From the NCBI GenBank assembly GCA_963815195.1, contig CAWFGE010000021.1, positions 32,001-96,000 on the forward strand: a stretch of DNA of 64,000 nt, written 5' to 3'. Positions 1,647 to 18,303 of this stretch are shown here, in pieces (within the stretch, counting starts at the first letter, position 1; the number at the start of each line of letters is the position of its first letter). Source of the stretch: an uncultured Planctomycetaceae bacterium. GTDB taxonomy: Bacteria; Planctomycetota; Planctomycetia; Planctomycetales; Planctomycetaceae. The notes beneath the pieces were generated by a model, which was not told the origin of the DNA, ran no database searches, and was given only the letters and a program-made list of their open reading frames with translations. The translations under genes were made by a program, and so were the position numbers.

Positions 1647-3059
1647 ATGCGGCCCTTTGTCCTCGTGTGTTTTTTTGCCATCCTTTTTAGTCCAAGCCCG
1701 TGGCTTTACGGGCAAAGCGCGCGGCCGAATTTTTTGATCATCCTGGCGGACGATTGCACGCACAGCGAATTGCCGGTTTATGGCGGGGCCAACGCGAAAA
1801 CGCCGAACATCGACCGCCTCGCGAAACAGGGGCTGGTGTTTAACCGGGCGTATGTGAGCGAAGCCATGTGCCAGCCCTGCCGCTCGGAGCTTTACACCGG
1901 GCAGCATCCGCTGCGGAACGGGTCATCCTGGAATCACTCGGCCAGCCGGCCCGATGCCACGAGCGTGGCTCAGCACCTGGGGGCGTTGGGTTATCGCGTG
2001 GGACTCGCCGGCAAGGTCCACGTCCAGCCGGCGAAGGTGTTTGCGTTTGAGCACGTCGGCGGCTACGATCCGAACTGCGTCCGCTCGCCCACGCTGCCCC
2101 ATACCACGGAACAGATCACCGGGTTCATGGAGCGGGACGACAAGCAGCCGTTCTGCCTCGTGGTGGCGCTCGTGGAACCGCACGTGCCCTGGGTCATGGG
2201 CGATCCGTCGCAGTATCCGCCGAGGAAACTTAAACTGCCCCCGAACCTCGCGGATACGAAAGTCACCCGCGAAGCCTACTCCCGCTACCTCGCGGAGATC
2301 ACTTACATGGACAACCAGGTCGGCGAGATTCTGGATGTGCTCAAAAACACAGGGCAAACCGACGACACGCTGGTCTTTTTCAGCTCCGAGCAAGGGGCGC
2401 AGTTCCCGGGCTGCAAGTGGACGAACTGGGACTCGGGCCTGCATACCGCACTCATCGCCCGTTGGCCGGGACATGTTCCCGAAGGAAAACGCACCGACGC
2501 CATCGTGCAATACGCCGACGTCCTGCCCACGCTGCTCGCACTGGCGGGCGGCGATGCGAAGAAGCACGCCTACGACGGCACGAGCTTTCTGGCGGCGCTC
2601 AAGGACCCGAATCAACCGCACCGCAAGTACGCGTATGCCCTGCATAACAATGTGCCCGAAGGCCCGCCCTACCCGATCCGCAGCATCAGTAACGGCGAGT
2701 ACCGCTACATCCGAAACCTCACCCCCGATGAGATCTACATCGAAAAACATCTCATGGGCTTAACAGGCCAGGGCACCTTGAACAATCCCTATTGGGGCAC
2801 GTGGATGTTCAATATCGACAACCCCCGCACGCTCAGCCTCGTCAAGCGCTACATGAAGCGCCCCGCCGAGCAGCTTTACCACACCAAGACCGATCGGTAT
2901 GAGATGACCGACCTCGCCGGCGATCCGAAGTATTCCAAAATCCAAGCCGAGCTGAGCGGCGAACTCGACCGCTGGCTCAAAGCCCAAGGCGACCCGGGCA
3001 TCCCTTTGGACACCTACGAATCCCTCGAAGCCGCCCGCAATGGGCAACATGCGTATTAG
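1647..3059 (+). CDS. Secreted formylglycine-dependent sulfatase (heparan N-sulfatase-like)
   Basis: Signal peptide, PNFLIILADD, CQPCRSELYTG (CxPxR), GKVH, and a C-terminal LYHTKTDRYEMTDLA. Confidence 0.92.
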   Translation: MRPFVLVCFFAILFSPSPWLYGQSARPNFLIILADDCTHSELPVYGGANAKTPNIDRLAKQGLVFNRAYVSEAMCQPCRSELYTGQHPLRNGSSWNHSASRPDATSVAQHLGALGYRVGLAGKVHVQPAKVFAFEHVGGYDPNCVRSPTLPHTTEQITGFMERDDKQPFCLVVALVEPHVPWVMGDPSQYPPRKLKLPPNLADTKVTREAYSRYLAEITYMDNQVGEILDVLKNTGQTDDTLVFFSSEQGAQFPGCKWTNWDSGLHTALIARWPGHVPEGKRTDAIVQYADVLPTLLALAGGDAKKHAYDGTSFLAALKDPNQPHRKYAYALHNNVPEGPPYPIRSISNGEYRYIRNLTPDEIYIEKHLMGLTGQGTLNNPYWGTWMFNIDNPRTLSLVKRYMKRPAEQLYHTKTDRYEMTDLAGDPKYSKIQAELSGELDRWLKAQGDPGIPLDTYESLEAARNGQHAY

Positions 3060-3092: not shown

Positions 3093-4422
3093 ATGGTCAC
3101 GCATCTTCCCGTGGAGCGTTTGGTGAATCTGTTGGACCCGGCGGCCAATCAGATTTGGGGGATGTCCGTCCACGACGCGACGGCAATCGTGGGCAGCGGC
3201 GATGTGGAGCGGATTCGCGGGATCGACGGCCATTTTGCGCTGCTCCACAAAGACGGGCAGCGGATTCGCATGGCCCGCTCGCTCGCGCGGCCGATGCGGT
3301 ATTTTCTCGCGAAACGCAGCGAAGGTCCTTGCCTTGTCGTCGCGGAGCGGATCGATGAAATTCAAGAGTTCCTGAAAGAGGAAGGCCTGGGCGGGCAGTT
3401 CCATCCGTCGTACACCCGCATGGTCCCGGCCCATCATTTGACGGAACTCCAACTCATCGGCTGCCCGGATCCCAATCCCACCGTTCACCGGTTCTTCGCG
3501 CCCGGCAAAATCGGCTGCCTGCGGATCTCGACGAGATCGGCTCAGCTTATATCGGCCGGCTTGCCGAGGAATGCGGGCATTGGCTGGACGGGCTCGACCC
3601 GCGGGAGCCGATTGGCGTCCTGTTCTCCGGCGGCATCGACAGCGGCTCGGTGCTGTTGGTGCTTTATCATTTGCTCTTGGAGCGCGGCGAGCGCCCGCCC
3701 GGCTCAAGGCATTCACGCTGTCGATCGATGGCCAAGGTGCCGACGCCCGGCAGTCGGTCGAGTTCTTGAAGGCTGTGGATCTCGGCATGCTGCTCGAGGT
3801 GATCGAAATCCCGGCCGGCTCGATCGATTACCGCGAGGCGGTGCGGATCATCGAGGACTATAAACCCCTCGACGTGCAAGCCGCCGCGATGGGAAACGCC
3901 CTGTGCAAGGGCATTCGCGCGAGGTATCCGGATTGGCGCTGCCTCGTGGACGGCGATGGCGGGGACGAGAACCTCAAGGACTATCCCATCGAAGACAATC
4001 CCGAACTCACGATCCGCAGCGTGTTCAATAATGTGATGCTGTACCAGGAAGGCTGGGGCGTAAACGCCGTCAAGCATTCGCTGACCTACACCGGCGGCCA
4101 GAGCCGGGGGCATGTTCGTTCCTGGGCCCCGGCTCGGCGGCTGGGGTTTTCGGGATTCAGCCCGTATGCCCTGCCGAACGTGATCGAAGTCGCCGAGGGC
4201 ATTCCGTTTATCGAACTCACCGATTGGGACCACGAACGGCTGTATTCGCTCAAAGGCGAAATCGTCCGCCGAGGCGTCGAGGCCGTCACCGGGTTGGAGA
4301 TGCCGGTGTTCGCCAAACGGCGGTTCCAGCATGGCGTCAGCAAGGAGGCGGAGTTCGCGCGACTGTTCCCGCAGGATGAAGCCTCCTACCGCCAGGCCTT
4401 CGCCGAGATCTATGCTGGATAA
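3093..4422 (+). CDS. Asparagine-synthase-like PP-loop ATP-dependent amide ligase, frameshifted near 3500 and 3690
   Basis: A hidden middle frame reads EPIGVLFSGGIDSGSV (PP-loop); downstream LKAFTL, DGDGGDE and KRRFQHG match the AsnB synthetase domain; no N-terminal catalytic Cys. Confidence 0.8.
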
Positions 4423-5362
4423 CATTCCCTTCTATCAGGACGCGGAAATCCTCGCGGCCCGCCCGCCGCGGAACGTCTTGGGTCCCCGCCGGCCTTATGC
4501 GTTCCTCGTCGAACCGGAGCACAACGCCCGGGGCGAAGTTGTGGACGTGGCGACGCTGTTTCTCACCAATCGCGAATGCCCGTTCCGCTGCCTGATGTGC
4601 GATCTGTGGAAGAACACGTTGACGGAATCCGTCTCCCCCGGCGACATTCCCGCGCAGATTCGCTGGGCCCTCAAGCAACTCCCGCCCGCGCGGGAGATCA
4701 AGCTTTATAACAGCGGGAATTTCTTTGACAAAAAGGCGATTCCCCCGGAGGATTACGCCGCGATCGCGGAATTGGTGCGCGGGTTTGAGACGGTGATCGT
4801 GGAGAATCATCCCCAACTCGCGTGCGAGGCCTGCCGGCGATTTCGGGATCTGATCGCCCCGGCTCGGCTCGAAATCGCGATGGGCCTCGAAACCTGCCAT
4901 CCCGAAATCCTGCCCCGCTTGAACAAACGCATGACGCTCGCGGACTTCGACCGGGCCGCGGGTTTTTTGCAGCAAGCGGGGATCCGCCTGCGGGTGTTTT
5001 TGCTCTTAAAGCCGCCGTTTCTCGAGGAAGCGGAAGCGGTGGAGTGGACGCTGCGGTCTTTGGACTATGCCTTCGACCGCGGGGCCGAGTGTTGCTCGAT
5101 CATCGCCACCCGCGCGGGGAACGGGATCATGGATCAATTGCAGGCGCAGGGACTCTTTTTGCCGCCGCGGGGAAGTTTTTTGGAGCAGGTGCTGGAAGCA
5201 GGACTCCATCAAGAGCGCGGGCGGGTGTTTGTGGACCTCTGGGAAGTCGAGCCGTTTTTTGATTGTGTCCATTGCCGACCTGAGCGGATCGAACGGCTGC
5301 GGGAGATGAACCTTTGGCAAAAGGTGTTGCCATCGATCCCGTGCGCGGAGTGCGAAGCATGA
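4412..5362 (+). CDS. Radical SAM protein resembling the RaSEA/TIGR01210 (archaeosine) family
   Basis: CPFRCLMC (CxxxCxxC), IKLYNSGNFFD, LEIAMGLET, LRVFLLLKPPFLEEAEA, C-terminal CxxC...CxxC; start overlaps the upstream gene. Confidence 0.85.
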   Translation: MLDNIPFYQDAEILAARPPRNVLGPRRPYAFLVEPEHNARGEVVDVATLFLTNRECPFRCLMCDLWKNTLTESVSPGDIPAQIRWALKQLPPAREIKLYNSGNFFDKKAIPPEDYAAIAELVRGFETVIVENHPQLACEACRRFRDLIAPARLEIAMGLETCHPEILPRLNKRMTLADFDRAAGFLQQAGIRLRVFLLLKPPFLEEAEAVEWTLRSLDYAFDRGAECCSIIATRAGNGIMDQLQAQGLFLPPRGSFLEQVLEAGLHQERGRVFVDLWEVEPFFDCVHCRPERIERLREMNLWQKVLPSIPCAECEA

Positions 5363-6873
5363 CCGCCCGCGATCGCTATGATGTCCTCGTTTTGGGTTCG
5401 GGATTCGGCGGCAGTCTGACGGCGATGATTTTAGCTCAGGCGGGGTTGTGCGTGGGAATGATCGATTCCCGCAAACATCCGCGGTTTGCGATTGGCGAAT
5501 CGTCGACGCCGAGCGCGGATCTGATTCTCCACGACCTCGCGAAAAAATATCATCTCACCGAGCTATTGCCGTTGTCCCGCTTCGGCACCTGGCGGGAGAC
5601 TTATCCCGAAATCCTCTGCGGCGCGTAGCGCGGGTTCACTTATGTCTGGCACGGCGAAGAAGACGGTTTCCAAGCCACTCCGGACCATCGGCACGAACTG
5701 TTTGTCGCGGCGAGCGCTTCCCGCGAGGTCGCGGATACAGAGTGGTATCGCCCGCAGGTGGATCAGTTCTTCGCGAAAGCCGCTCGAAACCGCGGGGCGG
5801 ACTTGTGGGAAGAAGCGAGGATCGCCCGCATCGAGCATCCCCAACCGCACGCCTGGCGAGTTACGATTCAATCTGGCGGCAAAGAGCGCCGGCTCGATGC
5901 GGATTTTCTGATCGATGCCACCGGACCGGCGGGCGTCCTGCCCCGGCATTTGGGGATTTCCGATCAAACCGATTCCCTGCTGACAAACTCTTCCGCCGTT
6001 TACGGGCATTGGGAGGAGATCGAACCCTTGGAGAATTGGTTAAGGCGGCGAGGGGCGAAGACGGACGATTATCCTTACCCGTGCGACGACTCCGCGATCC
6101 ATCACGTCTTCCCCGACGGCTGGACCTGGCAGTTGCGGTTCGAGAACGGGCTGACCAGCCTGGGCTCCGTGTTTGTTCCGGGCCGCGAAATCGATTCGAT
6201 GACGGAAGCCGATTCATTGTTGACGCAAAATCGCCTCGTGCTCCGCGAGATGCTCGCCGCGGCGAAACGGGCGGCGTTTCCGGGGCGGTTGTTTTGGACG
6301 GGGCGCATGCAGCGGCTCTGGGCCCAAGCCGCGGGCGAGGATTGGGCGGCCCTTCCGCACACCGCGGGCTTCATCGATGCTCTGCATAGCACGGGCATCG
6401 CCCACACCTTGAGCGGGATGGAACGGCTCTCGGAAACTCTCTTGGAATCGTCGCCCCCACACCGGCAACAAGCGTTGGAACGGTATTCGCGTCAAATCCT
6501 GGAAGAGTTAGCGCACATCGATTTGTTGGTCTCAGGGTGTTACTTCGGTCTCTATGATTTCCGGTTATTCAGCACCTGGTGCCACGTGTATTTCGCCGCC
6601 GCGACGACGTACGAAAAAAAACGCCTCGCCGATTCTTCCAACGACGTGGGCTTTCTGTGTGCCGGCGATCGCGAGTTCGCCCGGCGGGTTCGCGAGTTGC
6701 ACGCCTGGCTGCAAAGGTTTCATCAAAAATCTGAGAAACCGAACGACGCCGTGGTGCGGGAATTTGAGGAGTCCGTCAAACAACAGATCGAACCCTATAA
6801 TCACGTGGGATTATTCGATCCGCCGGTCCCGAACCTGTATTGGCACACCGCCGCGGAGAAGCGTGGCGACTAA
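5359..6873 (+). CDS. Flavin-dependent halogenase-family oxidoreductase with an in-frame TAG at 5626-5628
   Basis: GSGFGG FAD motif, HPRFAIGESSTP, FLIDATG, DGWTWQLRF (WxWxI-like), GFIDALHSTG; both ORF halves are in the same frame; ATGA overlap with the radical SAM stop. Confidence 0.85.
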
Positions 6874-7050
6874 AAGCGCGGGTTTCCACGGCCGGGCGAC
6901 TCGTGGACGAGTGCGTTCCCGAATCAAGGAATCAAGCGTCGCCGGGGAGTTTCTCTGGAGCGAAGCGCGGGAATGTGCTAGATTGCCCCCACGCGAGCGT
7001 GCCGGCGGATGGTGCGCGCGGAGACCCGTATTTGCAGGAGAGACGCGACG

Positions 7051-7683
7051 ATGTTGGGAGCCCACCTCAATCCCTTGGAATACCTGAGCCGCTGCTCGGA
7101 GGAGTTCGGCAAACTCGACCTTAGCCAGTCCGAAGGCCTGGCCCTGGAGATTTTTGACACCTACGAAGACGGGCGGTTTGTGTTCATCTGCGGCAACGGC
7201 GGCAGCGGGTCGAACTCGTCCCACTTCTGCGAAGACTTGGGCAAAAGCACGCTCGACCCCCAGGATTTTACGAACGACGATGTGAAACGCCTCAAGGTGC
7301 TCAGCCTCACCGACAACACGCCCTACATCCTCGCCTGGGGCAACGATGAGGGCTTCGACCGCGTGTTCGTCGAGCAGCTCAAAAACTTCGCGTCGCCCGA
7401 TGATGTGCTCGTCGCCATCAGCGGCAGCGGCAACAGCCCCAACATTCTGAACGCCGTCGAATGGGGCAACAAGCACAACCTCCGCACCTGGGGCATCACC
7501 GGCTACAGCGGCGGCAAGCTGCAATCCCTCGCCCGGCACAACCTGCACGTCCCGCTGGACGATATGGGCATGGTGGAATCCATCCACCTGTTGTTGTTCC
7601 ACTGGATCCTGAATGATGTGTATGCCCGCATCAACCAGGTCGGCCGCTATGCCGACGGGAAAAAAGGCTCCAAAGTCGCCTGA
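7051..7683 (+). CDS. gmhA: SIS-domain phosphosugar isomerase, GmhA (phosphoheptose isomerase)-like
   Basis: [42 protein letters not shown]. Confidence 0.8.
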
Positions 7684-7791: not shown

Positions 7792-10680
7792 TCAGCCGAA
7801 TTGCAGTTTGACATCCGTGATTTCGTAACCGTTCATGGGGACGTGGACCGCGGCGTTTTCGATGTCGAGGGTGTCCAGGGTTTGGCCTAGAAAGTCGCAG
7901 GCGGCCGCAGCGGTCGGGGTGCGGAAGCAATCGAGCTGCACGTGGCGGGAACGGCCTTCGGTCTCGGCGAGGCGGACGATGAAGCCGAACGGCTCGTCGG
8001 CTGCCGCGTCTTCGGGAAGGCCGCGAAGGCTTTGAATCTGCACATTCTTCGCGGCGAGATGGAAGAACCAGCCTTCGGGGCCGGTGCGCGGCGGGCCGGC
8101 TTCGGTGGGGATGACGAGCGCCGGCGTCATCGCATCCCGGGCCGCGACCTGCGGGTAGCTTTGATCGATGGCAATGTCGAACTTGAAGCTCCGCCGGCTT
8201 TCGCCCGCGGTGATCAATAACGTATCCAGCATCCTCAGGCCCGTCTTGCGGTGGAACGGCTGCCCGTGAAAGAGCACCGTGGTCCGCAGGTCGCCCTCGG
8301 CGATTTCCAGATAATCGGGGCTGTCGAACCGCTCGCCGCGAAAGCCGAACGCGAAATCCTGCACCGAACGGGTGAGCGCGGCCGTGCTGTCGTTCCAGGC
8401 GAAGCGGAGCGCGTAATAGTTCGTCCAAGGGTCGGCGTCGGGGACTTTTTGCAGGTCGAGTTCGATCTCGACTTCCACCACCGGCCGATGCCGCCAGACC
8501 CGCGTGGTCTGTTTGAAGAATGCCAAGGGCGATTCATCTTTTTGATCGACGATGTCCCCCGTGGTCACCACTTCGCCGAGCGTCGGGCCGGTGCAGGTGG
8601 CTTCGATGGACCCGCAGCGCATCTCGGAATAGAACGTTTTGATCGTCTCGTGCTCGTTTTGCTCGTTGGGATGGCCGAGGGGCACGCTGCGCTCGTGCGG
8701 AAAGCGGTAGCCGATCTGCTGGCTGATGCGGTTGGGGCTCCGGCCGTAGTTTTTGATCCGCCCGATCCCGCCGGTGGCATCGTTCATGTAGACTTCAAAA
8801 AAGTCGTTCCGCAGCATCAAATCTTCTACAAGCGGCGGCTCGCCTTTTTTGGCGGCGGGTTTGGGACCCTGGCCATCTTTGGGAACCCACACAAACCCGG
8901 AGCCCGGGATCTCCGCGACGACGAACCGGCGGTTGTCGTCGAATTGCACCGCCTTGATGCCCCCTCCCACCGGCGGCGGGGATTCCAACTGCGGCAGTTC
9001 CACCGAGACCGTCCGCTTGTGCGCCAACGTGTTGACGAGCAGAAAGCCGGCGTTCGATTCCGCCCCGGAAAGCACGACTTCCGCGAGCTGTTCCTCGGCT
9101 GCGGTTTGAAACTCCTGAAGCGCGAGTTCCGCGGCGGGAATCGCCTCGGCATGCTCGGCGGATTCTTCGCAATCGGGGCCGGCTTTCTCGACGATCTGTT
9201 CAATCGCATCGAGCCGGGATTGATCGACCCGTTGGCCTCGGAGAATTTGCGAAACCGCCCAGGCCCATTGGGCTCGCTCCAACTGCCTTCGGCGGAGGGC
9301 ATAGTTGGCCCAGCGACTGACGGGGTTCGGCTCTTGCCGGGCCGCGGCTTGGATGAAAAACGGCGGCAGGTACTCCTGCTGATCGAACACCGACAGCCGG
9401 CCGGGGTCGTCCGTGTTTTCCATGAAGTCGCCCATTGTCACAAACCGCCCGAGCACGGGGGCGTACTTCTGCATTCTGGCGAGATCCTCGAACCAGGGGG
9501 CTTTGACTTCCGGCCAGCGGGCAAACACGACCGCGGCCACCTGGTCGCGCTCCATCGACTCCGCCATGTGCTGGGCGAATTTTAAGTAGCTCAGCGACCC
9601 TTCGGCGGTCATCGGAAACCGGCCGAGGGCATTGATGATCGTCTGGTCGGCGCCTTCCCAGCGGATCTTGCTCTCGTCCTCGTCGGGATAAAGGCCATCG
9701 TCCATGACCAGATGCAGGGCCGAGCGAAAACCGAACTTTGTCAGAACCCCCGGAAGCAGCGTCGATAACCCATACCGCCGCCGGCCCCAGCAACTCGGCG
9801 TTCGGCCGAACAGCCGCCGATACGCCCTTTGGCCTTCCGCGAACTGCCAGAGCACGGCGCCTATGGGCATCAACGGGAACGGGGCATCTTCCCATTCCCC
9901 GCCGACGACGTTCAGCCGCCCCGCGTCCCAGGCTTCGCGAAGGGCGGCGATCGTTTCGGGCGATTTGTCGTGGATTTCCTGAAGCTCCTCCGCCGTCGCC
10001 ACGAGGTTGACGGGTTTCTCCGCCGCGGCCATTTTCAACAGCGGCTCGCGCTGCTCCTCGGCGATGCGGGGGATCAACAGGCACAGGTCGATCAGGTAGC
10101 ATTCGACGGGATAAAACCGCTCGCGGGCTTCGAGGAGCGATTCAAACGCCCCCCGCAGGTGGTTCCGCGCGGTGTCGAGATCGCCGGCGATCGCCGCCTC
10201 CGCCGCGGCGAGGCTTTCGCGCTCGAGTTGCACTTCATCGAGGTTGCTGTAGTAGTGCATGTGCCGGGTGAGAAGTTCCATTTGCAGATAGCACGTCCCG
10301 AGCGCAAGGAAATCCGCCGCGATGTCTTCATCGACCGGGGCGGGATTCTCCAGCGGGGCCAAGGCCTTCGCGAGCATGTCCGCACGGTTTTCCAGACCGG
10401 AAACGACGACGGCTCCCTGTTTTTCGGCATAGCCCACCCAACCCCCCGGCAGCCAGTCCTCGCAGGCGGTGGGCACCACGATCAGCCGATTCTCCAAAGT
10501 AGCGGGCGGCTCGTCCGAGCGGTCCCACCTCGGCAGCGTCTTCGCCTGCTGCAACAACAGCGGATGCCACACGACGGCAAAGGCGTTCAGCAAACTCGCC
10601 GCCGGCTGCTCTTGGAGTTCGGTCGGAAAATCTTCCAGAGAATGGCTGGGAATCAAAACGACAATATCGGTGTAAGTCAT
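7792..10680 (-). CDS. Large conserved protein with a glycoside hydrolase family 38/57-like architecture
   Basis: About 960 aa; barrel-like region (NVVGGEW, YRRLFGRTP, LPGVLTKFGF), LRNDFFEVYMNDATGGI, and GH38-type C-terminal IVRLAETEG...YEITDVKL. Confidence 0.55.
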   Translation of the reverse strand: MTYTDIVVLIPSHSLEDFPTELQEQPAASLLNAFAVVWHPLLLQQAKTLPRWDRSDEPPATLENRLIVVPTACEDWLPGGWVGYAEKQGAVVVSGLENRADMLAKALAPLENPAPVDEDIAADFLALGTCYLQMELLTRHMHYYSNLDEVQLERESLAAAEAAIAGDLDTARNHLRGAFESLLEARERFYPVECYLIDLCLLIPRIAEEQREPLLKMAAAEKPVNLVATAEELQEIHDKSPETIAALREAWDAGRLNVVGGEWEDAPFPLMPIGAVLWQFAEGQRAYRRLFGRTPSCWGRRRYGLSTLLPGVLTKFGFRSALHLVMDDGLYPDEDESKIRWEGADQTIINALGRFPMTAEGSLSYLKFAQHMAESMERDQVAAVVFARWPEVKAPWFEDLARMQKYAPVLGRFVTMGDFMENTDDPGRLSVFDQQEYLPPFFIQAAARQEPNPVSRWANYALRRRQLERAQWAWAVSQILRGQRVDQSRLDAIEQIVEKAGPDCEESAEHAEAIPAAELALQEFQTAAEEQLAEVVLSGAESNAGFLLVNTLAHKRTVSVELPQLESPPPVGGGIKAVQFDDNRRFVVAEIPGSGFVWVPKDGQGPKPAAKKGEPPLVEDLMLRNDFFEVYMNDATGGIGRIKNYGRSPNRISQQIGYRFPHERSVPLGHPNEQNEHETIKTFYSEMRCGSIEATCTGPTLGEVVTTGDIVDQKDESPLAFFKQTTRVWRHRPVVEVEIELDLQKVPDADPWTNYYALRFAWNDSTAALTRSVQDFAFGFRGERFDSPDYLEIAEGDLRTTVLFHGQPFHRKTGLRMLDTLLITAGESRRSFKFDIAIDQSYPQVAARDAMTPALVIPTEAGPPRTGPEGWFFHLAAKNVQIQSLRGLPEDAAADEPFGFIVRLAETEGRSRHVQLDCFRTPTAAAACDFLGQTLDTLDIENAAVHVPMNGYEITDVKLQFG

Positions 10681-10795
10681 TGCGGGGAAGCACTTTCTAT
10701 TGGCGGCTTTTTTAGACCCAAAGGGTCGCAAGGATAACTTTGATTACCACGAAGACGCGAACAATAAAACACGTTTTCAACGGAATTCGCCAGCG

Positions 10796-11240: not shown

Positions 11241-11408
11241 AGGTTTAGGAAAAAGTTTGCATTCTGCACACTTCTTGAGTCTCACGATCCTTTCAAAACT
11301 TCCTCCCCCGTCTGGGGGGAGTTAATTCACGATTAAAGTCCATTCGTTCCCGGGTTCGCCTGGAACCTGGGAATCATGCTGGCGTTTTTCTCTGGAGAAG
11401 ACAACACC

Positions 11409-13781
11409 ATGGCGGAAAATCAAGGTGTCTGGGGCATTGAAATTGGTCAGGCGGGCCTTAAGGCGATCCGCCTGCGTTATGCGGAAGCCGCCGAGCAGGT
11501 GTTGGCGGTGGCGTTCGATTATGTTCCGCACCCCAAGATTTTGAGTCAACCCGACGCCGTGCCTTCTGAATTGATCCCCCAGGCGCTCAGCAAGTTTCTC
11601 GAGCGCAACGATCTCAAGGGGGATAAGGTCGTGATCAGCGTGCCCGGGCAGACGGCTCTTGCGCGGTTCATCCAACTCCCGCCGGTGCCGGCTCCCAAGG
11701 TTCCGGAGATCGTCAAGTTCGAGGCCCGCCAGCAGATTCCGTTCGCCCTCGAAGACGTGATCTGGGATTATCAGGTGCTCTCGGTGGGCAGCGAAGAAGC
11801 GGACTTCATGCTGGATGCCGAGGTCGGGTTGTTCGCGATGAAGCGCGACCAGGTGCTGGAGCAGCTCAACCCGTTCACGGCGTTCAAGGTGGAAGTCGAT
11901 CAAATTCAGATCGCTCCCTTGGGGCTCTATAACGTCCTGTATTATGACCAGATGGGGCTCCGCCTGGACGGGGAAGAGAAAAGCCGCGACGAGCATTACA
12001 TCATTCTCGACATGGGCGCGGACAACACCACCCTCGTCGTGACCAATGGGGCGAAGATCTGGATCAGAAACGTCCCCGTGGGCGGGAACCACTTCACGCG
12101 GGCGCTGACCAAGGAAATGAAGCTGACATTCGCCAAGGCCGAGCATCTCAAATGCAACGCCACCAAGTCCCCCGATCCGCGGGCGGTGTTCAAGGCGCTG
12201 CAGCCCGTGTTTAACGACTACGTCTCGGAAATCCAGCGGTCGATCGGGTATTTTTCGAGCGTGAATCGCAGCGCCAAGATCAAAAAGCTGATCGGCGTGG
12301 GCAACGGGTTCAAGCTGGCGGGCCTGCAGAAATTCCTCCAGCAAAACCTGACGCAATTCGAAGTCGAACGGCTCTCGGGCTACAAGGCGTTGGTCGGCGA
12401 CAACGTGCTCAACGCGAACCTGTTCGAGGAAAACCTGCTCACCTTCGCCGTGCCTTACGGGCTGGCACTTCAGGGGCTCGACCTCACGAAGATCCACACG
12501 AGTCTGTTGCCGCCGGAGATTGCGACCGCCCGCAAGATCCGCGAGAAAAAGCCCTGGGCGGCGGCCGCGGCCGCCGCGATGCTGGTCGGCGTTTCGCTGT
12601 CGGCGGTCGGTTATGCCCGCGTGCAGGATTCGGTGAGTACGGAGCGGTTTGGAGAGGCCGAGCAAAAAGTCGCCGGCTTCAATTCCACCGTGACCAATTT
12701 CAAGACCGAGTACGAGACCCGGACGAAAAAGCACGATGAGATCGTGGCCACGGGGCGGGTGTTGATCGATCAACTCAACGCCCGCGAGAACTGGCTGGAA
12801 GTTTATAAGGCGATCAATGACTGCCTGCCTCACGAGGAGGGAAAAGACTTCGACGAGAAGAATATCGAGCTGCGAAACCTGATGAAGCTGAAAGTGATCA
12901 ACGTCCAGAAGCTGCCGGATCTGGATACGATGTGGTATGCGAAGCTGCTGCCCAACCAGTACGGTTCGATGCAGAAAAATGACCTCAAGCCGCCCAAAGG
13001 TCCGGGGTATCTGTTTACGCTGCAGGGATGCCATTATCACCACGAGGAAAAAAAGGAGATCATGCAGGCGGACACCTATGTGAAACACACGCTGCTAAAG
13101 AACCTCCAACAATGGGCCACGAAGGAGCACTATGCGCCGGTGCGGAAGATCGGGATCACGCATGCCGTCATGATCTATGCGGACACCAACCCGAAGCTTT
13201 ACTGGTACTCGCCGGACCTCCGCGAGCAAAGGCTGCTCATGGGTCAGCAGCCGGGGGTGGGAAACTTCGGCGGCACGGGAGACATGGGAGACGAGGCCGG
13301 GGCTCCGGCGGCCCCGATGCCCATGGGCGAGGAAGGCGAAGAAGGCGGCGTCAAGCCGGCCGACGTTTCCAATCGCCAGAAAATCCACCGCACCGAGTTC
13401 ATGATCCAGTTTGTCTGGCAGCCGGTGCCCAAGGATGAGCGAGAGGTCAACAACATCATGTACGACCAGCTCATCGCCTACCAGGCCCAGAACAAGAACC
13501 TGGATTTGCCGTTCGATCAAATCCAGCAGGCCGTGAACGAGAAGAATAAAAAAATCGCGGAAAGCAACGCGAAAACCCGGGACGACAACGCCACGTTGCC
13601 CGAAGGCGACGCCAGCCGGCAACCCCTACAGGAGCCGCTGAAAGTCACGCAGGAGCAATACGACGCCTTCAAGCAGAGGTTCATGGTGCCCGGAACGCCC
13701 GAGACCTATCCGAAAGGCGCGACGGCCCCGGCGGGCGGGGACAGCGCCGGTATGGACTCCGCGGCCGCCGACGGCCATTAG
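11409..13781 (+). CDS. pilM: Type IV pilus assembly protein PilM with a fused TM and periplasmic PilN-like region
   Basis: WGIEIGQAGLKAI, FEARQQIPF, ILDMGADNT, GGNHFTRAL, EIQRSIGYF, then SLLPPEI and a TM helix; GGAGAAG RBS. Confidence 0.92.
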   Translation: MAENQGVWGIEIGQAGLKAIRLRYAEAAEQVLAVAFDYVPHPKILSQPDAVPSELIPQALSKFLERNDLKGDKVVISVPGQTALARFIQLPPVPAPKVPEIVKFEARQQIPFALEDVIWDYQVLSVGSEEADFMLDAEVGLFAMKRDQVLEQLNPFTAFKVEVDQIQIAPLGLYNVLYYDQMGLRLDGEEKSRDEHYIILDMGADNTTLVVTNGAKIWIRNVPVGGNHFTRALTKEMKLTFAKAEHLKCNATKSPDPRAVFKALQPVFNDYVSEIQRSIGYFSSVNRSAKIKKLIGVGNGFKLAGLQKFLQQNLTQFEVERLSGYKALVGDNVLNANLFEENLLTFAVPYGLALQGLDLTKIHTSLLPPEIATARKIREKKPWAAAAAAAMLVGVSLSAVGYARVQDSVSTERFGEAEQKVAGFNSTVTNFKTEYETRTKKHDEIVATGRVLIDQLNARENWLEVYKAINDCLPHEEGKDFDEKNIELRNLMKLKVINVQKLPDLDTMWYAKLLPNQYGSMQKNDLKPPKGPGYLFTLQGCHYHHEEKKEIMQADTYVKHTLLKNLQQWATKEHYAPVRKIGITHAVMIYADTNPKLYWYSPDLREQRLLMGQQPGVGNFGGTGDMGDEAGAPAAPMPMGEEGEEGGVKPADVSNRQKIHRTEFMIQFVWQPVPKDEREVNNIMYDQLIAYQAQNKNLDLPFDQIQQAVNEKNKKIAESNAKTRDDNATLPEGDASRQPLQEPLKVTQEQYDAFKQRFMVPGTPETYPKGATAPAGGDSAGMDSAAADGH

Positions 13782-13948
13782 TCCGCCACGTTTTGGCCCG
13801 GCGGAGCGCGAAAAGATTTTTGCGGCGGCCGGAACTTGTGAGATTTTGAATTCGTCCAACAGGTAAGAGGGATCGCGGAGCCGAAGCGTTGACTCGGTTT
13901 TTTCCGCTCCCTCGCGACTCCTCCATCAGAAAGACATCGAGGCCCGAC

Positions 13949-15922
13949 ATGGAAAAACTTCAGCCTCTCATCAAGCACAAATACTGGGTCATCGGCGGTG
14001 CGGCGCTCTTGTTGCCGTTCATCGGCTGGTGGGTGAGCACGGTCGCCGCCGCGAAACATATCGACGAACGCATTCAAACGTTGTCGGCGCTGAATGTGTC
14101 CTCGGGCAGCAACACGCCCAATAAGGACTACATCGATCACATCGAAGACGTCAACAAGGTCTTGGACGGTCGTCAGATGAAGCTGTCCACCCGGTTGTAC
14201 GAGGAGCAAGAACGCCTGCACACATGGCCGGGCGTTCTGCCGAAGTACATGAAAGACAAAAAATACCGCGAGCAGGCGGACGACCAGGCGCTCCGGCTTT
14301 ACGCCCGGTTTCACCTGAATGAGATCGACGAGATGCTGAAGTTCGTTCGCCAATACAATTCCTCTTATTCGACGGACGAAAAGGGCCGGCCAATCATTCA
14401 GGAAACGGGCGTGCTCGAGATCGATAAGCAAAACATCCCGCACGTCGAGCGGGCGCGATGGGAGAGAACCCGTCCCACCTCGGACGAAATGTGGGACACC
14501 CAGGAAGATGTGTGGCTGACGTGGGAGGTTTTGAAAGCCGTCAATGACGTGAATGCCGATGCCACCAAGATCAGCGATGCCCCGATTCGCCAGCTTTTGA
14601 CGCTCCAACTCCGCGGCGGTTCCCGCGCCGAAGAATCGGCAGCGCCCGCGCAAGGTTCGCCGATGGGCGACGGCGACGAGAACTCCGCGCCTTCCAGCGC
14701 TCCCGCTGGCTTTACCGGCGGAGACTCCACGGTGGATGGAATGGGCGGAGGATCGGGTCTCCCGTCTCTCCAGGTCAACCCGGATTCGGTGCTGGGTTCC
14801 GACGCGTTGCAAACCGCGTCCACCGGCGGAGACAGCGATTCCGCTCCCCCGCCCGTGGTGCCCGGCGGCGGTCCGATCGGAGGCGGCATGGGCGGCATGG
14901 GCGGCAACTCGCAACCCAAGCGGCGCTACGTCGATGATTCTCCCGACTTGCCCTACAAGACCCGCGGATTCTATCTCGAAGTCACGATGGTCCATGACAA
15001 GTTGCCCGAACTGCAAGCGGCCTTGGTGAGCATGGATTGGCCCACAGAGTTGTTGCTCGTCCAGCAGGTTTCCCTGCACGAGGACGAAATCGCGCCCGTT
15101 GTGGACAGTGATTCGAGCTCGACGATGCGGCGGGGTATGCCCAGTCGAATCGGCGGAGGCGGCGGACGCAACGGCGGAGTCTTTCCACAACGAACGCAAA
15201 TGCCCGGCTTTCCTCGCACGAATTCGAGATTTGGCGCTCCCGGCGGCCTTGGAGGCGGCGGACGCAACGGCGGATTCACGACGCCGCGAATGCCGATGCC
15301 GCAATTCAATCAAGGAGCCAGCTCGCGCAGCGGCGGGACATCGTTTAACCGCGGCGGGTTCAACAACCGCTTCCCCATGGCGGACCCGATGGGAGGCGGC
15401 CGAGGTTTCTCACCGATGGGCGATATGGGCGGGGACGATCAACGCGCCCCTGCGACCTCCTACGACATGGCCATGAGCGACCCGTACCTCGCGCATGTCG
15501 GAATCGTCGGTTTGATGACGATTTACCGCTCTCCGGAAGAGATGGCCGACAAAGGCGAGAACGCCGGGGCAACGGCCGATGCGGCCCCGTCCGCTCAAAC
15601 CGAACCTCAGCCCGTCCAAACGCCGGGCGGGAATGCCACGCCGGAATCCGCGGAACCGGGCACGCAAACTCCACCGGCCGCCACTCCGGACGGGAACGCC
15701 ACGCCGGAGAACCCCGCGAATCCCGCCACGCCCCCGGCGGCCCCGATGAATCAAACGCCCCCGGCGAATCCGATGAATCAAACGCCCCCGGCGAATCCGA
15801 TGAATCAAACCCCGCCTAATGCGGGCTCGGCTCCCAACACTCCGGAGCCTCCGATGAAAAACGACAACCCCGCTCCCGCTCCAAAATCCAATCCGCAGCC
15901 CGCGAAGCCGGCGGACGAATGA
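13949..15922 (+). CDS. Membrane-anchored pilus-operon protein (PilO-like position) with Gly/Met/Pro-rich low-complexity tails
   Basis: N-terminal TM (KHKYWVIGG...), MWDTQEDVWL, KTRGFYLEVTM; synteny after pilM. Confidence 0.6.
   Translation: MEKLQPLIKHKYWVIGGAALLLPFIGWWVSTVAAAKHIDERIQTLSALNVSSGSNTPNKDYIDHIEDVNKVLDGRQMKLSTRLYEEQERLHTWPGVLPKYMKDKKYREQADDQALRLYARFHLNEIDEMLKFVRQYNSSYSTDEKGRPIIQETGVLEIDKQNIPHVERARWERTRPTSDEMWDTQEDVWLTWEVLKAVNDVNADATKISDAPIRQLLTLQLRGGSRAEESAAPAQGSPMGDGDENSAPSSAPAGFTGGDSTVDGMGGGSGLPSLQVNPDSVLGSDALQTASTGGDSDSAPPPVVPGGGPIGGGMGGMGGNSQPKRRYVDDSPDLPYKTRGFYLEVTMVHDKLPELQAALVSMDWPTELLLVQQVSLHEDEIAPVVDSDSSSTMRRGMPSRIGGGGGRNGGVFPQRTQMPGFPRTNSRFGAPGGLGGGGRNGGFTTPRMPMPQFNQGASSRSGGTSFNRGGFNNRFPMADPMGGGRGFSPMGDMGGDDQRAPATSYDMAMSDPYLAHVGIVGLMTIYRSPEEMADKGENAGATADAAPSAQTEPQPVQTPGGNATPESAEPGTQTPPAATPDGNATPENPANPATPPAAPMNQTPPANPMNQTPPANPMNQTPPNAGSAPNTPEPPMKNDNPAPAPKSNPQPAKPADE
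15743..15820 (+). repeat. 27-bp coding tandem repeat, about 3 copies (PMNQTPPAN)
   Basis: CCGATGAATCAAACGCCCCCGGCGAAT starts at 15743 and 15770, with a partial third copy at 15797. Confidence 0.9.
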
Positions 15923-15987
15923 GCGGTCGGTCTTTTCCCTGCAATCCCTCAAGCGCAATTCTTTAGTTCGCCTAGACGGAGTCGGTC

Positions 15988-18303
15988 ATGAAATTATCCG
16001 CAGAACGATTGAAGAGCATCGACTGGAAACAGTTGGGCGTAAATCACGGCGAGAAAATCACGCTCGCCGTGGTTGGGCTGGTGGTGGTGTTGATTCTCTT
16101 TACAGGGACTCGCTGGAAGACCTACCAGGAGAAACAGCCCGGCGACTTGCTGTCCAACGTGCAAACCCAGGAAGAGGCGCTGACCCAGGCGACCTGGCCC
16201 AAGTCGGAGCAGGAAATCTACACCAAACGCTACGATGTGCGCACGGTGTACGACAACTCGTATTCCGTGGTCAACGCGGGAAATTTTAAATACCCGCCGG
16301 GCCATCCGATGTTCTGGCCGCTGCACCGCCAGCAGGAACCCATCGAGGAACCGCAATGGCTCACCGTGCAATATGTGCTGGCCACCGCCGGGAATTTTGT
16401 GTTGGAACTGCCTCCGCCGGGACAAGAGCCGGTGTACGATGGGGCCGAGGCCCTTGCGGAGGCCAATAACGCCGGCAAGGCCGAAACGAGGGCAGAGGCG
16501 ATTCTAAAGCAGTTCGAGACTGGTGGCGGTCCCACCCAGGGTGGGCCGGAAGGCGTGGACGGCGGTTATGCCCCGGGCAATTCTCCGCCCAGGGCCAATA
16601 GGAATCCGATGCCGATGGGAGAGATGGGCGATATGGGAGACATGGGCGACATGGCGGACGGAGACATGGGCACGGGCGAAACCGGAGTCGTGGTCAATTC
16701 CCGCGGCGTGCGGTTTATTTCCGTGCGGGGCGTGTACCCTCTCCGGGAGCAGGCGAAGAAGATTCTCGAAGCCCGGCACGATCCCCGTCCGATCAATCCG
16801 CGGAGCCTGGTGCTGTTCAAGGATTTCGAGCTGCAACGGCAACAGGCCAAGCCGGGCCCGAATCCCTGGAGCGATGACGACAAGGATTGGAAAAGCGTGG
16901 ACCGGACTGCCATGGAAGAGATCCTCACGAAAGCGGCGAATTATTCCGAGGATGTGGTGGACATCAACGATACGGATTGGGTCTTTACGATGCCCTTGCC
17001 CATGCGGCTCACCGGGCGGTGGATTCCCTACTTCGTGGGGCATCCCAAGATCAAGACCCTGACCGAACGAGAGATCGAGATTCGCCGAATGCTGAACGAG
17101 CAGCTCGTGCAGCTGGAGAAGGAAGCCAAGTCGACGGCGGAGGACTCGGACTTGCCCGGCGGTTTTGCCGACTTTCAGCGGAATCTGGCGGGCATTCAAT
17201 CGGATGTGGCCGGCGACGAAACCCAAATGCGGCGTTTGATGTCGGGCATGCAGGAAATGTACGATCCGGAAAACCCGGGGGCATTTCAGAAGGAAGGCTA
17301 CGAAGGCATGACGCAGGGCATGCTCAGCCAAACTCCGGAGTACCTGCTATTCCGCTATCTCGATTTTGACGTGGAACCCGGCCAGGCTTACCGCTATCGG
17401 GTGCGGCTGAAAGTCTACAACCCCCACCACGATGAGCCTTTGGAAAACGTGGCCTCGCCCAAAGTCGTGGACGGCAAATACCGCGAGACCCCGTGGTCCA
17501 AACCCACCACGGTCGCCGTGATGCCCGAGGACACCAAATTCTTTGTCGAGGACATCACACCCCCGCGGGGACCGAACGAACCCAAAGCCAAAGTCGATTT
17601 CTTCCAATGGCTTTCGGACGTCGGCACCACCGCCCACAAGGAACTCGAAGTGCAGAAGGGCCAGATCATCGGGCAACCGAAACCCAAGACCAAGATCGAA
17701 GCGTCCGGCGAAGAGGTGGTCGTCGACCCGAAGGATGAGAAAATGGAAGTGGAAGTGCTGCGTCCCTTTCAAAGCTTCAAGCCCGAACCCATCGAGTTGA
17801 CCACCAACGACGCCGTTGTGGACTTGGTCGCCCCGCCGGCGAAATTCCAGCCTCGCGAATTCCACGCCGACTTGAAGATTTGGGACCAGCGGAAGGAATG
17901 GCAAGGCGTGGTCAAGCCGCTGAGCCAGATGCTTATCGTCAACGAGTATGGCGAGTTGGAGAACCGCAATCCGTTGGCCCAACTCCAGGACCATTCTCTC
18001 GCGACGGTGATTCTGGAACGTGAATATCGCGATTTTGAATACTTGAAGGACGCCGGCAAAGACGAAGCGATGGGCGAGGACGGCATGATGGGCGATGAGG
18101 CGACGATGGATGACATGAACCAGCAGCTCTACCAGGCCGGAGGAGCCGGCCGCGGAGGCAAAGGAGGTGGTGGCCGCAGCGGAAAGAGCGCCCCAGGTTC
18201 GGCGGGCCGCAGCAGCCGGGGTGGTTCCGCGGGACCCGGCGGCGGCGGACGCAGCGCAAATCCCCTCCGCAGAACACGCCGGCGTGCCAACAACGACGCC
18301 TGA
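15988..18303 (+). CDS. Membrane-anchored pilus-operon protein with an FnIII-like segment
   Basis: HGEK followed by a TM helix; LLFRYLDFDVEPGQAYRYRVRLKVYNP; MGDMGDM repeats; third gene of the pilM operon. Confidence 0.6.
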   Translation: MKLSAERLKSIDWKQLGVNHGEKITLAVVGLVVVLILFTGTRWKTYQEKQPGDLLSNVQTQEEALTQATWPKSEQEIYTKRYDVRTVYDNSYSVVNAGNFKYPPGHPMFWPLHRQQEPIEEPQWLTVQYVLATAGNFVLELPPPGQEPVYDGAEALAEANNAGKAETRAEAILKQFETGGGPTQGGPEGVDGGYAPGNSPPRANRNPMPMGEMGDMGDMGDMADGDMGTGETGVVVNSRGVRFISVRGVYPLREQAKKILEARHDPRPINPRSLVLFKDFELQRQQAKPGPNPWSDDDKDWKSVDRTAMEEILTKAANYSEDVVDINDTDWVFTMPLPMRLTGRWIPYFVGHPKIKTLTEREIEIRRMLNEQLVQLEKEAKSTAEDSDLPGGFADFQRNLAGIQSDVAGDETQMRRLMSGMQEMYDPENPGAFQKEGYEGMTQGMLSQTPEYLLFRYLDFDVEPGQAYRYRVRLKVYNPHHDEPLENVASPKVVDGKYRETPWSKPTTVAVMPEDTKFFVEDITPPRGPNEPKAKVDFFQWLSDVGTTAHKELEVQKGQIIGQPKPKTKIEASGEEVVVDPKDEKMEVEVLRPFQSFKPEPIELTTNDAVVDLVAPPAKFQPREFHADLKIWDQRKEWQGVVKPLSQMLIVNEYGELENRNPLAQLQDHSLATVILEREYRDFEYLKDAGKDEAMGEDGMMGDEATMDDMNQQLYQAGGAGRGGKGGGGRSGKSAPGSAGRSSRGGSAGPGGGGRSANPLRRTRRRANNDA

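Follow-up and report, generated by a model that had tools for sequence, protein, structure and literature searches.

Which chemistry joins an asparagine synthetase B (AsnB)-like ligase, a radical S-adenosylmethionine (SAM) enzyme and a halogenase-like flavoprotein in one bacterial operon? The question is raised by a stretch of 64,000 nucleotides (nt) from an uncultured Planctomycetaceae bacterium (contig CAWFGE010000021.1, positions 32,001 to 96,000; here called the window), whose nearest named homologues are Planctomycetaceae. A sequence-only reading of this DNA had noticed three genes overlapping at their ends, shortly downstream of a sulfatase gene, and its coordinates were confirmed: the ligase ATG at 3093 lies 33 nt past the end of the sulfatase gene at 3059, the ligase stop codon (4420-4422) and the radical SAM ATG at 4412 produce an overlap of 11 nt, and an ATGA at 5359-5362 combines the radical SAM stop with the flavoprotein start. 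We show that the trio is real, i.e., a set of co-inherited and co-located genes across Planctomycetota, Acidobacteriota and Bacteroidota. It is a widespread, uncharacterised module in which known superfamilies form an undescribed combination; a search of the open-access literature found neither this cassette nor any bacterial RaSEA-like enzyme described. By analogy with the archaeal ArcS-RaSEA pair, to which we return below, the ligase and the radical SAM enzyme may form the obligate two-step unit of a single cytoplasmic small-molecule pathway, ligating an amine (likely lysine) and cleaving the adduct by radical chemistry, with halogenation of the small molecule as a usual but optional addition. 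We give this reading a probability of roughly 0.4.

Co-inheritance of the three genes

A scan of species genomes recovered at least 588 relatives of the radical SAM enzyme; analysis was confined to the 80 best loci, so this locus set leans to close kin. Genes at the loci were called with a simple caller that missed some, presence was counted by tblastn, and partners within 500 nt were taken as adjacent. Related genomes are not independent of each other, and some genomes contribute to both the locus set and the genome set. The ligase lies directly upstream of the radical SAM gene in 61 of the 80 loci (18 without it, one not evaluable) and the halogenase-like gene directly downstream in 52 (24 without it, four not evaluable). 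Both partners are adjacent in 44 loci and neither in 11. With the ligase upstream in 61/80 and the flavoprotein downstream in 52/80, the arrangement is not a product of chance.

Whole genomes gave the same picture. The radical SAM gene occurs in 15 of 41 planctomycete genomes, and ligase matches were confined to these 15, with an orthologue in 14 (that of G012 being a fragment at a contig end); the match in G016, a 79% complete genome, reaches an E-value of only 8e-4 and is not an orthologue. The halogenase is present in 14 of the 15 and additionally in G024. Among 151 genomes of the acidobacterial phylum, radical SAM enzyme and ligase share an identical set of 12, ten of which also have the halogenase, as does one outsider with a weaker match; one carrier, G373, is unpublished, and without it the counts become 11, 11 and 9. 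In Bacteroidota (301 genomes) the identical set comprises 17 genomes, 15 of them with the halogenase, which again has one weaker outsider. Pooled over the 493 genomes, a ligase orthologue accompanies 43 of the 44 carriers of the radical SAM clade and a halogenase 39, and the ligase alone was found in 0 of the remaining 449 genomes searched. The expectation of an uncharacterised unit, drawn earlier from the window's letters, was borne out: the three genes do co-occur in other genomes, and their failure to do so had been named beforehand as a refutation.

In four genomes (G005, G010, G017 and G019) the operon is split, with all three genes kept among unrelated housekeeping neighbours. Five Bacteroidales/Flavobacteria-type genomes keep the ligase and radical SAM pair with zero halogenase matches; thus, this pair is the core of the module and the halogenase an optional third member. 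The near-perfect co-inheritance of ligase and radical SAM enzyme over three phyla, together with the high conservation of the ligase (mean pairwise identity about 63% across phyla), points to a specific, old pathway. According to record titles, cultured carriers exist (Novipirellula rosea, Aporhodopirellula aestuarii, Maioricimonas sp. and Gemmata sp.), which makes the module open to direct testing.

Apparent gene fusions were encountered in 13 proteins. Most were rejected, having frameshift garbage at the junction; two radical SAM-halogenase fusions, P0392 and P0394, are clean but single sequences. No relatives were found in the viral contigs and phages searched. A complex prediction for ligase and radical SAM enzyme scored 0.00, which speaks neither for nor against contact.

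Layout and integrity of the window copy

The trio comprises the following features in the window:
3093..4422, + strand: AsnB-like ATP-dependent amide ligase without the glutaminase Cys (PF00733 match, motifs, fold); three frames as assembled
3459..3473, + strand: invariant GCPDP motif with Cys124 in the degenerate N-terminal domain of the ligase; Cys in 53/53 orthologues
3503..3507, + strand: first ligase frameshift site, probably an assembly error (alignment to genome G001)
3626..3643, + strand: ligase PP-loop SGGIDS (motif, profile alignment)
3688..3691, + strand: second ligase frameshift site; extra base present in an independent contig
3949..3969, + strand: ligase DGDGGDE motif, aligned with SGEGSDE of asparagine synthetase B
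4315..4335, + strand: ligase KRRFQHG motif with invariant Lys409 (orthologue alignment)
4412..5362, + strand: RaSEA-related radical SAM enzyme P0001, 316 aa, with four extra C-terminal Cys (TIGR01210 match, alignment)
4577..4600, + strand: CX3CX2C iron-sulfur/SAM motif (Cys56, 60 and 63), invariant in 70/70
5359..6873, + strand: predicted flavin-dependent halogenase of the PltM/tetracycline-7-halogenase type (homology to solved halogenases)
5626..5628, + strand: TAG at the invariant Lys90 column of the halogenase in the assembly; Lys in independent contigs

As assembled, the trio has three breaks: two ligase frameshifts, where alignment to G001, a genome of the same genus, shows one base missing near 3505 and another near 3688, and the halogenase TAG. 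They could mean that the family is real and the window copy a decaying pseudo-operon, the more so as the break near 3505 falls in a gap of read coverage (3503-3564) and G002, a genome of the same genus as the window, gave no match to any of the three genes. Two of the breaks are absent, however, from independent contigs assembled from short reads of near-identical populations (depth about 5 or less, possibly another strain): a contig of run X1 (806 nt, 2 differences) has a Lys codon at 5626, with which the contigs of run X2 agree, and near 3690 X1 supplies a contig that is longer by one base. The gatB gene (77-1040) is frameshifted by the same kind of error, and X1 contigs differ there by several indels; since the same reads correct gatB, the assembly is error-prone in this part of the window. 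This is good, though not final, evidence of assembly error, and makes decay highly improbable in our estimate. The near-identical populations make up only small shares of runs X2 and X3, which has no bearing on habitat. Intact orthologues from G001, ligase P0121 (443 aa) and halogenase P0122 (505 aa), stand in for the broken copies below.

An AsnB-fold ligase without glutaminase

P0121 matches PF00733 at an E-value of 6.8e-8 and scores 32.5 bits on TIGR01536, below the asparagine synthetase B cut-off of 267. Searched against PDB sequences, the family profile finds asparagine synthetases alone (E about 2e-4), and their motifs align with those of the ligase. Invariant in 53 orthologues are S[GA]G[IV]DSG, GxGGDEN, E-x-Y-K-x-x-D, GCPDP and Lys409, which we take to be the catalytic Lys of AsnB-type synthetases. 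The family has the hallmarks of an AsnB-type ATP pyrophosphatase (PP-loop S[GA]G[IV]DS, GxGxDE, synthetase fold). Unlike asparagine synthetase B, it has a shortened N-terminal domain with the GCPDP motif, and Cys at position 2, the glutaminase nucleophile, occurs in 0 of the 53 orthologues; the absence of an N-terminal Cys next to an intact SGGIDS, first noticed in the window copy, therefore holds for the family.

The predicted structure (pLDDT, i.e., predicted local distance difference test, of 88) placed beta-lactam synthetase in the top Foldseek rows (template modelling (TM) score 0.61-0.66) and also matched human asparagine synthetase (0.59-0.67), carbapenam synthetase CarA (0.53-0.57) and TsnB9, all of them at 12-17% identity. 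Beta-lactam synthetase and CarA have in common with the ligase the AsnB fold, a non-catalytic N-terminal domain, the PP-loop and a C-terminal Lys, whereas sequence identity is low and no clavam or carbapenem genes recur near the trio. The two synthetases use a Tyr-Glu dyad in the synthetase site, with the Tyr probably at the column of the GEG glutamate of asparagine synthetase B; mapped through that enzyme, this column is Asp in 50/53 and Glu in 3/53 ligases. From its fold and motifs the ligase is predicted to be an ATP-dependent amide former, and without the glutaminase Cys the amine must come from outside or from within the substrate.

A radical SAM enzyme related to RaSEA

P0001 carries the motifs IKLYNSGNFFD, LEIAMGLET and FLLLKPPFL and the C-terminal Cys pairs from which a resemblance to RaSEA had been read. 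The resemblance stands: TIGR01210 (RaSEA) is the best NCBIfam family of P0001, and no other family has matches in all 70 sampled homologues. Membership does not. Sequence comparison places the enzyme in a separate clade related to RaSEA, as judged from its score, a long branch and its Cys spacing, the figures for which are weighed below. No grouping with another characterised radical SAM family, an outcome named beforehand as a refutation, was seen.

For comparison, we collected RaSEA-type proteins by running a motif against metagenomes (80 loci of at least 120 matches, 78 with the motif in an open reading frame (ORF), 66 full length); these proteins have no taxonomic label, and the columns of the selecting motif are biased. 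Seven of eight RaSEA-type controls exceeded the TIGR01210 cut-off (294-455 bits). Both sets have the Cys triad, K-x-Y/F-x-S-G, Gln82, Lys97, Gly102, Glu131, GLE, NK, PP and four C-terminal Cys. Three other RaSEA-like proteins of bacteria do not have Lys97. Neither a ligase nor a halogenase match was found at any of the 80 metagenome loci taken from the at least 120 matches. The radical SAM enzyme of the trio may act like RaSEA without being one.

With RaSEA as closest named family, and with queC and a tgt gene in the same genome, a bacterial archaeosine-like or other 7-deazapurine or RNA modification had to be considered. A search for tgt, arcS and queC disfavours such a target: the genome (94.6% complete) has no match to the ArcS domain PF17884, the archaeal TGT family (TIGR00432) stays under cut-off throughout, its one TGT is of the queuine type and queC lies away from the trio. 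A domain search detected no RNA-binding domain in the ligase. QueC does precede the radical SAM gene, in divergent orientation and immediately upstream, at two planctomycete loci (L093:1-741 and L090:9160-10023), which have no adjacent ligase; this is 2 of the best 80 loci among at least 588. We regard an RNA target as very unlikely.

Other searches with the radical SAM enzyme added little. A PDB sequence search gave nothing useful, and Foldseek returned generic radical SAM folds only. In VIA, queuine lyase came out on top (Z 17.6, root-mean-square deviation 3.2, 218 aligned); this ranking was set aside and left unused, being a practical tie with biotin synthase (Z 16.6). The ESM Atlas matches were confined to clusters without a name that belong to the families already described.

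Three RaSEA-like genes were found on plasmids. The one on Streptomyces plasmid pFRL3 (NC_023283.1, L133:19851-20966; 173 bits on TIGR01210) heads an operon with P450, SHMT, GT9, carbamoyltransferase and RfaE genes and no AsnB. On Bacillus plasmid NZ_CP068720.1 (L255:7929-9086; 198 bits) the gene lies in a fatty-acid/polyketide-type cluster, two genes past a glutamine-hydrolysing asnB, and constitutes a second, independent pairing of RaSEA-like and AsnB proteins. The third (198 bits) is located about 5 kb from adc on the solvent plasmid of Clostridium acetobutylicum (NC_015686.1, L254:7677-8828).

A predicted halogenase of the free-standing type

The nearest solved relatives of P0122 are PltM (2e-42) and tetracycline 7-halogenase (4e-34), with carrier-protein-type enzymes far behind. 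Like these two free-standing enzymes, the family keeps the GxGxxG motif for flavin adenine dinucleotide, the Lys column and the WxW. Lys90 is present in 46/46 halogenases and aligns with the Lys of PltM CGIKLGF, which we assume to be catalytic. In the WxWxIP region the family instead reads WxWxLxF, with W256 invariant, W258 nearly so and LxF replacing IP. The suspected halogenase-like flavoprotein keeps the catalytic features of halogenases, and GxGxxG and Lys together predict a flavin-dependent halogenase of the PltM/CtcP type.

For another planctomycete flavin halogenase, encoded at the baaAB locus for 3,5-dibromo-p-anisic acid, the proposed substrate is a small aromatic acid (bioRxiv 10.1101/723874). 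Compared by its description only, this locus differs from the trio in that BaaB adjoins a UbiC-like chorismate lyase, and the portion of the preprint available to us mentions no AsnB-like or radical SAM gene (bioRxiv 10.1101/723874).

A proposed pathway

We propose the following order of steps. The ligase would activate a substrate carboxylate as acyl-adenylate, which an external amine would capture; the likeliest such amine is that of the lysine side chain. The radical SAM enzyme would then abstract a hydrogen next to the nitrogen and cleave the C-N bond, so that the nitrogen would come from lysine and stay behind in a primary amide or a related group. For this second step our model is the C-N cleavage of preQ0-Lys by RaSEA. 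In an optional third step, the PltM-like enzyme would halogenate the free molecule on an electron-rich ring. Secreted FG-GAP/ASPIC proteins, whose genes are frequent neighbours, would probably use the product or act together with it.

The precedent is the archaeal pair in which ArcS, using neither ammonium nor glutamine, adds the lysine on which RaSEA then acts, and in which ArcS is reported to be active only in complex with RaSEA (PMC11298593). The trio resembles it in having TIGR01210 as closest family, in Gln82, Lys97, Glu131, GLE, NK and the C-terminal Cys4, and in the strict pairing with an amine-transferring partner. It differs in that this partner is an AsnB-fold ATP ligase and that of RaSEA the TGT-derived ArcS, in the attached halogenase, in a radical SAM clade that is separate and below cut-off with CX3CX2C, and in a genome without detected ArcS or archaeal TGT.

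Several points weigh against the proposed pathway. P0001 scores 101 bits on TIGR01210, against a curated cut-off of 212. The Cys spacing is CX3CX2C in 76/76 clade members vs CX7CX2C in 52/66 RaSEA-type proteins, and columns of the pocket region differ as well (e.g., E55/G, D64/G, N100/T, A109/E and I231/N). In a quick, unrooted IQ-TREE phylogeny without bootstrap (40 of the 76 clade members, 30 of the 66 RaSEA-type proteins and the three plasmid proteins), a long branch (SH-aLRT 100) sets all 40 clade members apart from the other proteins, and radical SAM relatives this far apart often change chemistry. Because the folds of ArcS and the ligase are unrelated, the two pairings are alike by analogy only. 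Neither a precursor-supply gene recurring beside the trio nor a recurring flavin reductase gene was found among the neighbour families. Shikimate-type neighbours in Bacteroidota (DAHP synthase in 5/13 loci, an FkbO/Hyg5-like gene in 2/13) hint at an aromatic acid substrate; the hint misses the full trio, as these neighbours stand mostly in halogenase-free loci, with a halogenase in 1/13 Bacteroidota loci and in 0/5 of the Bacteroidales/Flavobacteria-type genomes that carry the pair.

Such divergence would also fit a single small-molecule pathway in which lysine is no nitrogen donor. There, the ligase would either close a lactam or attach ammonia or a different amine, which the product would retain, and the radical chemistry would be of another kind, such as C-C or C-S bond formation, rearrangement or decarboxylation. 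Beta-lactam synthetase leading the Foldseek rows of the ligase is consistent with it, as are the other RaSEA-like proteins found in unrelated biosynthetic operons without ArcS. Lys97, common to the clade and RaSEA, speaks against it, as does Asp or Glu in place of the presumed Tyr at the GEG glutamate column. We consider a pathway of this second kind somewhat unlikely.

If lysine is indeed the donor, the trio would be a possible second case of this use. The module also brings to light a new halogenase subfamily and a radical SAM clade, so far unstudied, for which a concrete reaction can be tested. A bolder version of the lysine route, which we think unlikely, would make the AsnB-fold ligase and the RaSEA-related lyase a glutamine-independent amidation machine, convergent with the ArcS-RaSEA logic, whose product is a halogenated cofactor or signal of wide occurrence. 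This product would then serve the secreted FG-GAP/ASPIC proteins and the hydrazine-synthase-like haem proteins of Planctomycetota, Acidobacteriota and Bacteroidota.

Genomic neighbourhood

Genes for FG-GAP/ASPIC-UnbV proteins lie within 10 kb in 12/13 Bacteroidota, 10/13 Acidobacteriota and 2/4 Gemmataceae loci, and in 3/38 other planctomycete and 0/5 Rhodothermota loci. Further recurrent neighbours include an UnbU-like membrane protein (9/13 Acidobacteriota loci), an NMT1-type ABC transporter, AhpD-like and YtkA-like proteins and, in Bacteroidota, RidA-like genes and a hydrazine-synthase-like haem set beside the DAHP synthase and FkbO/Hyg5-like genes. All 15 trio genomes among the relatives have at least five UnbV_ASPIC matches, and a large TPR-FG-GAP protein (E below 1e-85, a threshold picked afterwards among kin that are not independent) occurs in 13/15 of them vs 5/26 others. 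The trio gives a lead on the role of the abundant ASPIC/UnbV proteins in these phyla. The FG-GAP/ASPIC and UnbU-like neighbours and the UnbV_ASPIC matches would also fit enzymes that modify a protein or peptide, e.g., by forming an isopeptide in exported FG-GAP/ASPIC, UnbU-like or haem proteins or by supplying them with a halogenated cofactor. One protein, P0268, is a radical SAM enzyme fused to an ASPIC domain, and the GxGGD motif is lasso cyclase-like. Yet ASPIC genes also occur in 18/26 trio-free genomes, FG-GAP neighbours are rare in planctomycete loci outside Gemmataceae, and the nearest solved halogenases presumably act on free molecules. No parts of a lasso system (precursor, RRE B1, protease B2) formed a recurring neighbour family, and the eight largest clusters of 1444 short ORFs read as off-frame pieces of neighbouring genes rather than a precursor peptide, although fast-evolving precursors could escape the simple caller. 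A protein or peptide substrate therefore seems improbable. UnbU as obligate partner was rejected, its gene being present in 4/41 planctomycete genomes; neither the FG-GAP/ASPIC nor the UnbU neighbours are obligate.

The genome of the window itself has, on another contig (L128, G000:C18:179500-189200), the genes that in Acidobacteria and Gemmataceae stand beside the trio as a module, comprising a membrane protein, a YtkA-like protein, a TPR-FG-GAP protein (1166 aa), an ASPIC protein and an UnbU-like protein that is 63% identical to an acidobacterial one. In five Bacteroidota loci (L261, L263, L264, L100 and L107) the ligase and radical SAM pair is part of an extended cluster that also encodes DAHP synthase, a RidA-like protein, two binding proteins, FG-GAP/ASPIC proteins, a protein with a hydrazine-synthase-alpha domain and a YncE beta-propeller/di-haem protein, and that resembles a hydrazine-synthase-like complex outside anammox bacteria. 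At L055:2831-8659, L310:1950-8902 and L296:16875-18060, NMT1-type ABC transporter and AhpD/CMD-like genes stand beside the trio, and in L055 an iodothyronine-deiodinase-like gene lies directly upstream of the ligase.

Among the best 80 of at least 588 loci, the sulfatase was rejected as a member of the operon, with matches in four loci only (27-28% identity, not adjacent), and the window's GmhA, GH38-like, GBBH-like and gatB genes had no match. Promoter and terminator scans yielded chance-level results only. On its 3' side the trio is followed by a GmhA-like SIS protein (7009-7683, + strand) and a GH38-like protein (7792-10731, - strand). The long + strand genes at 11376-18303 of the window resemble a type IV pilus assembly (PilM-type) cluster.

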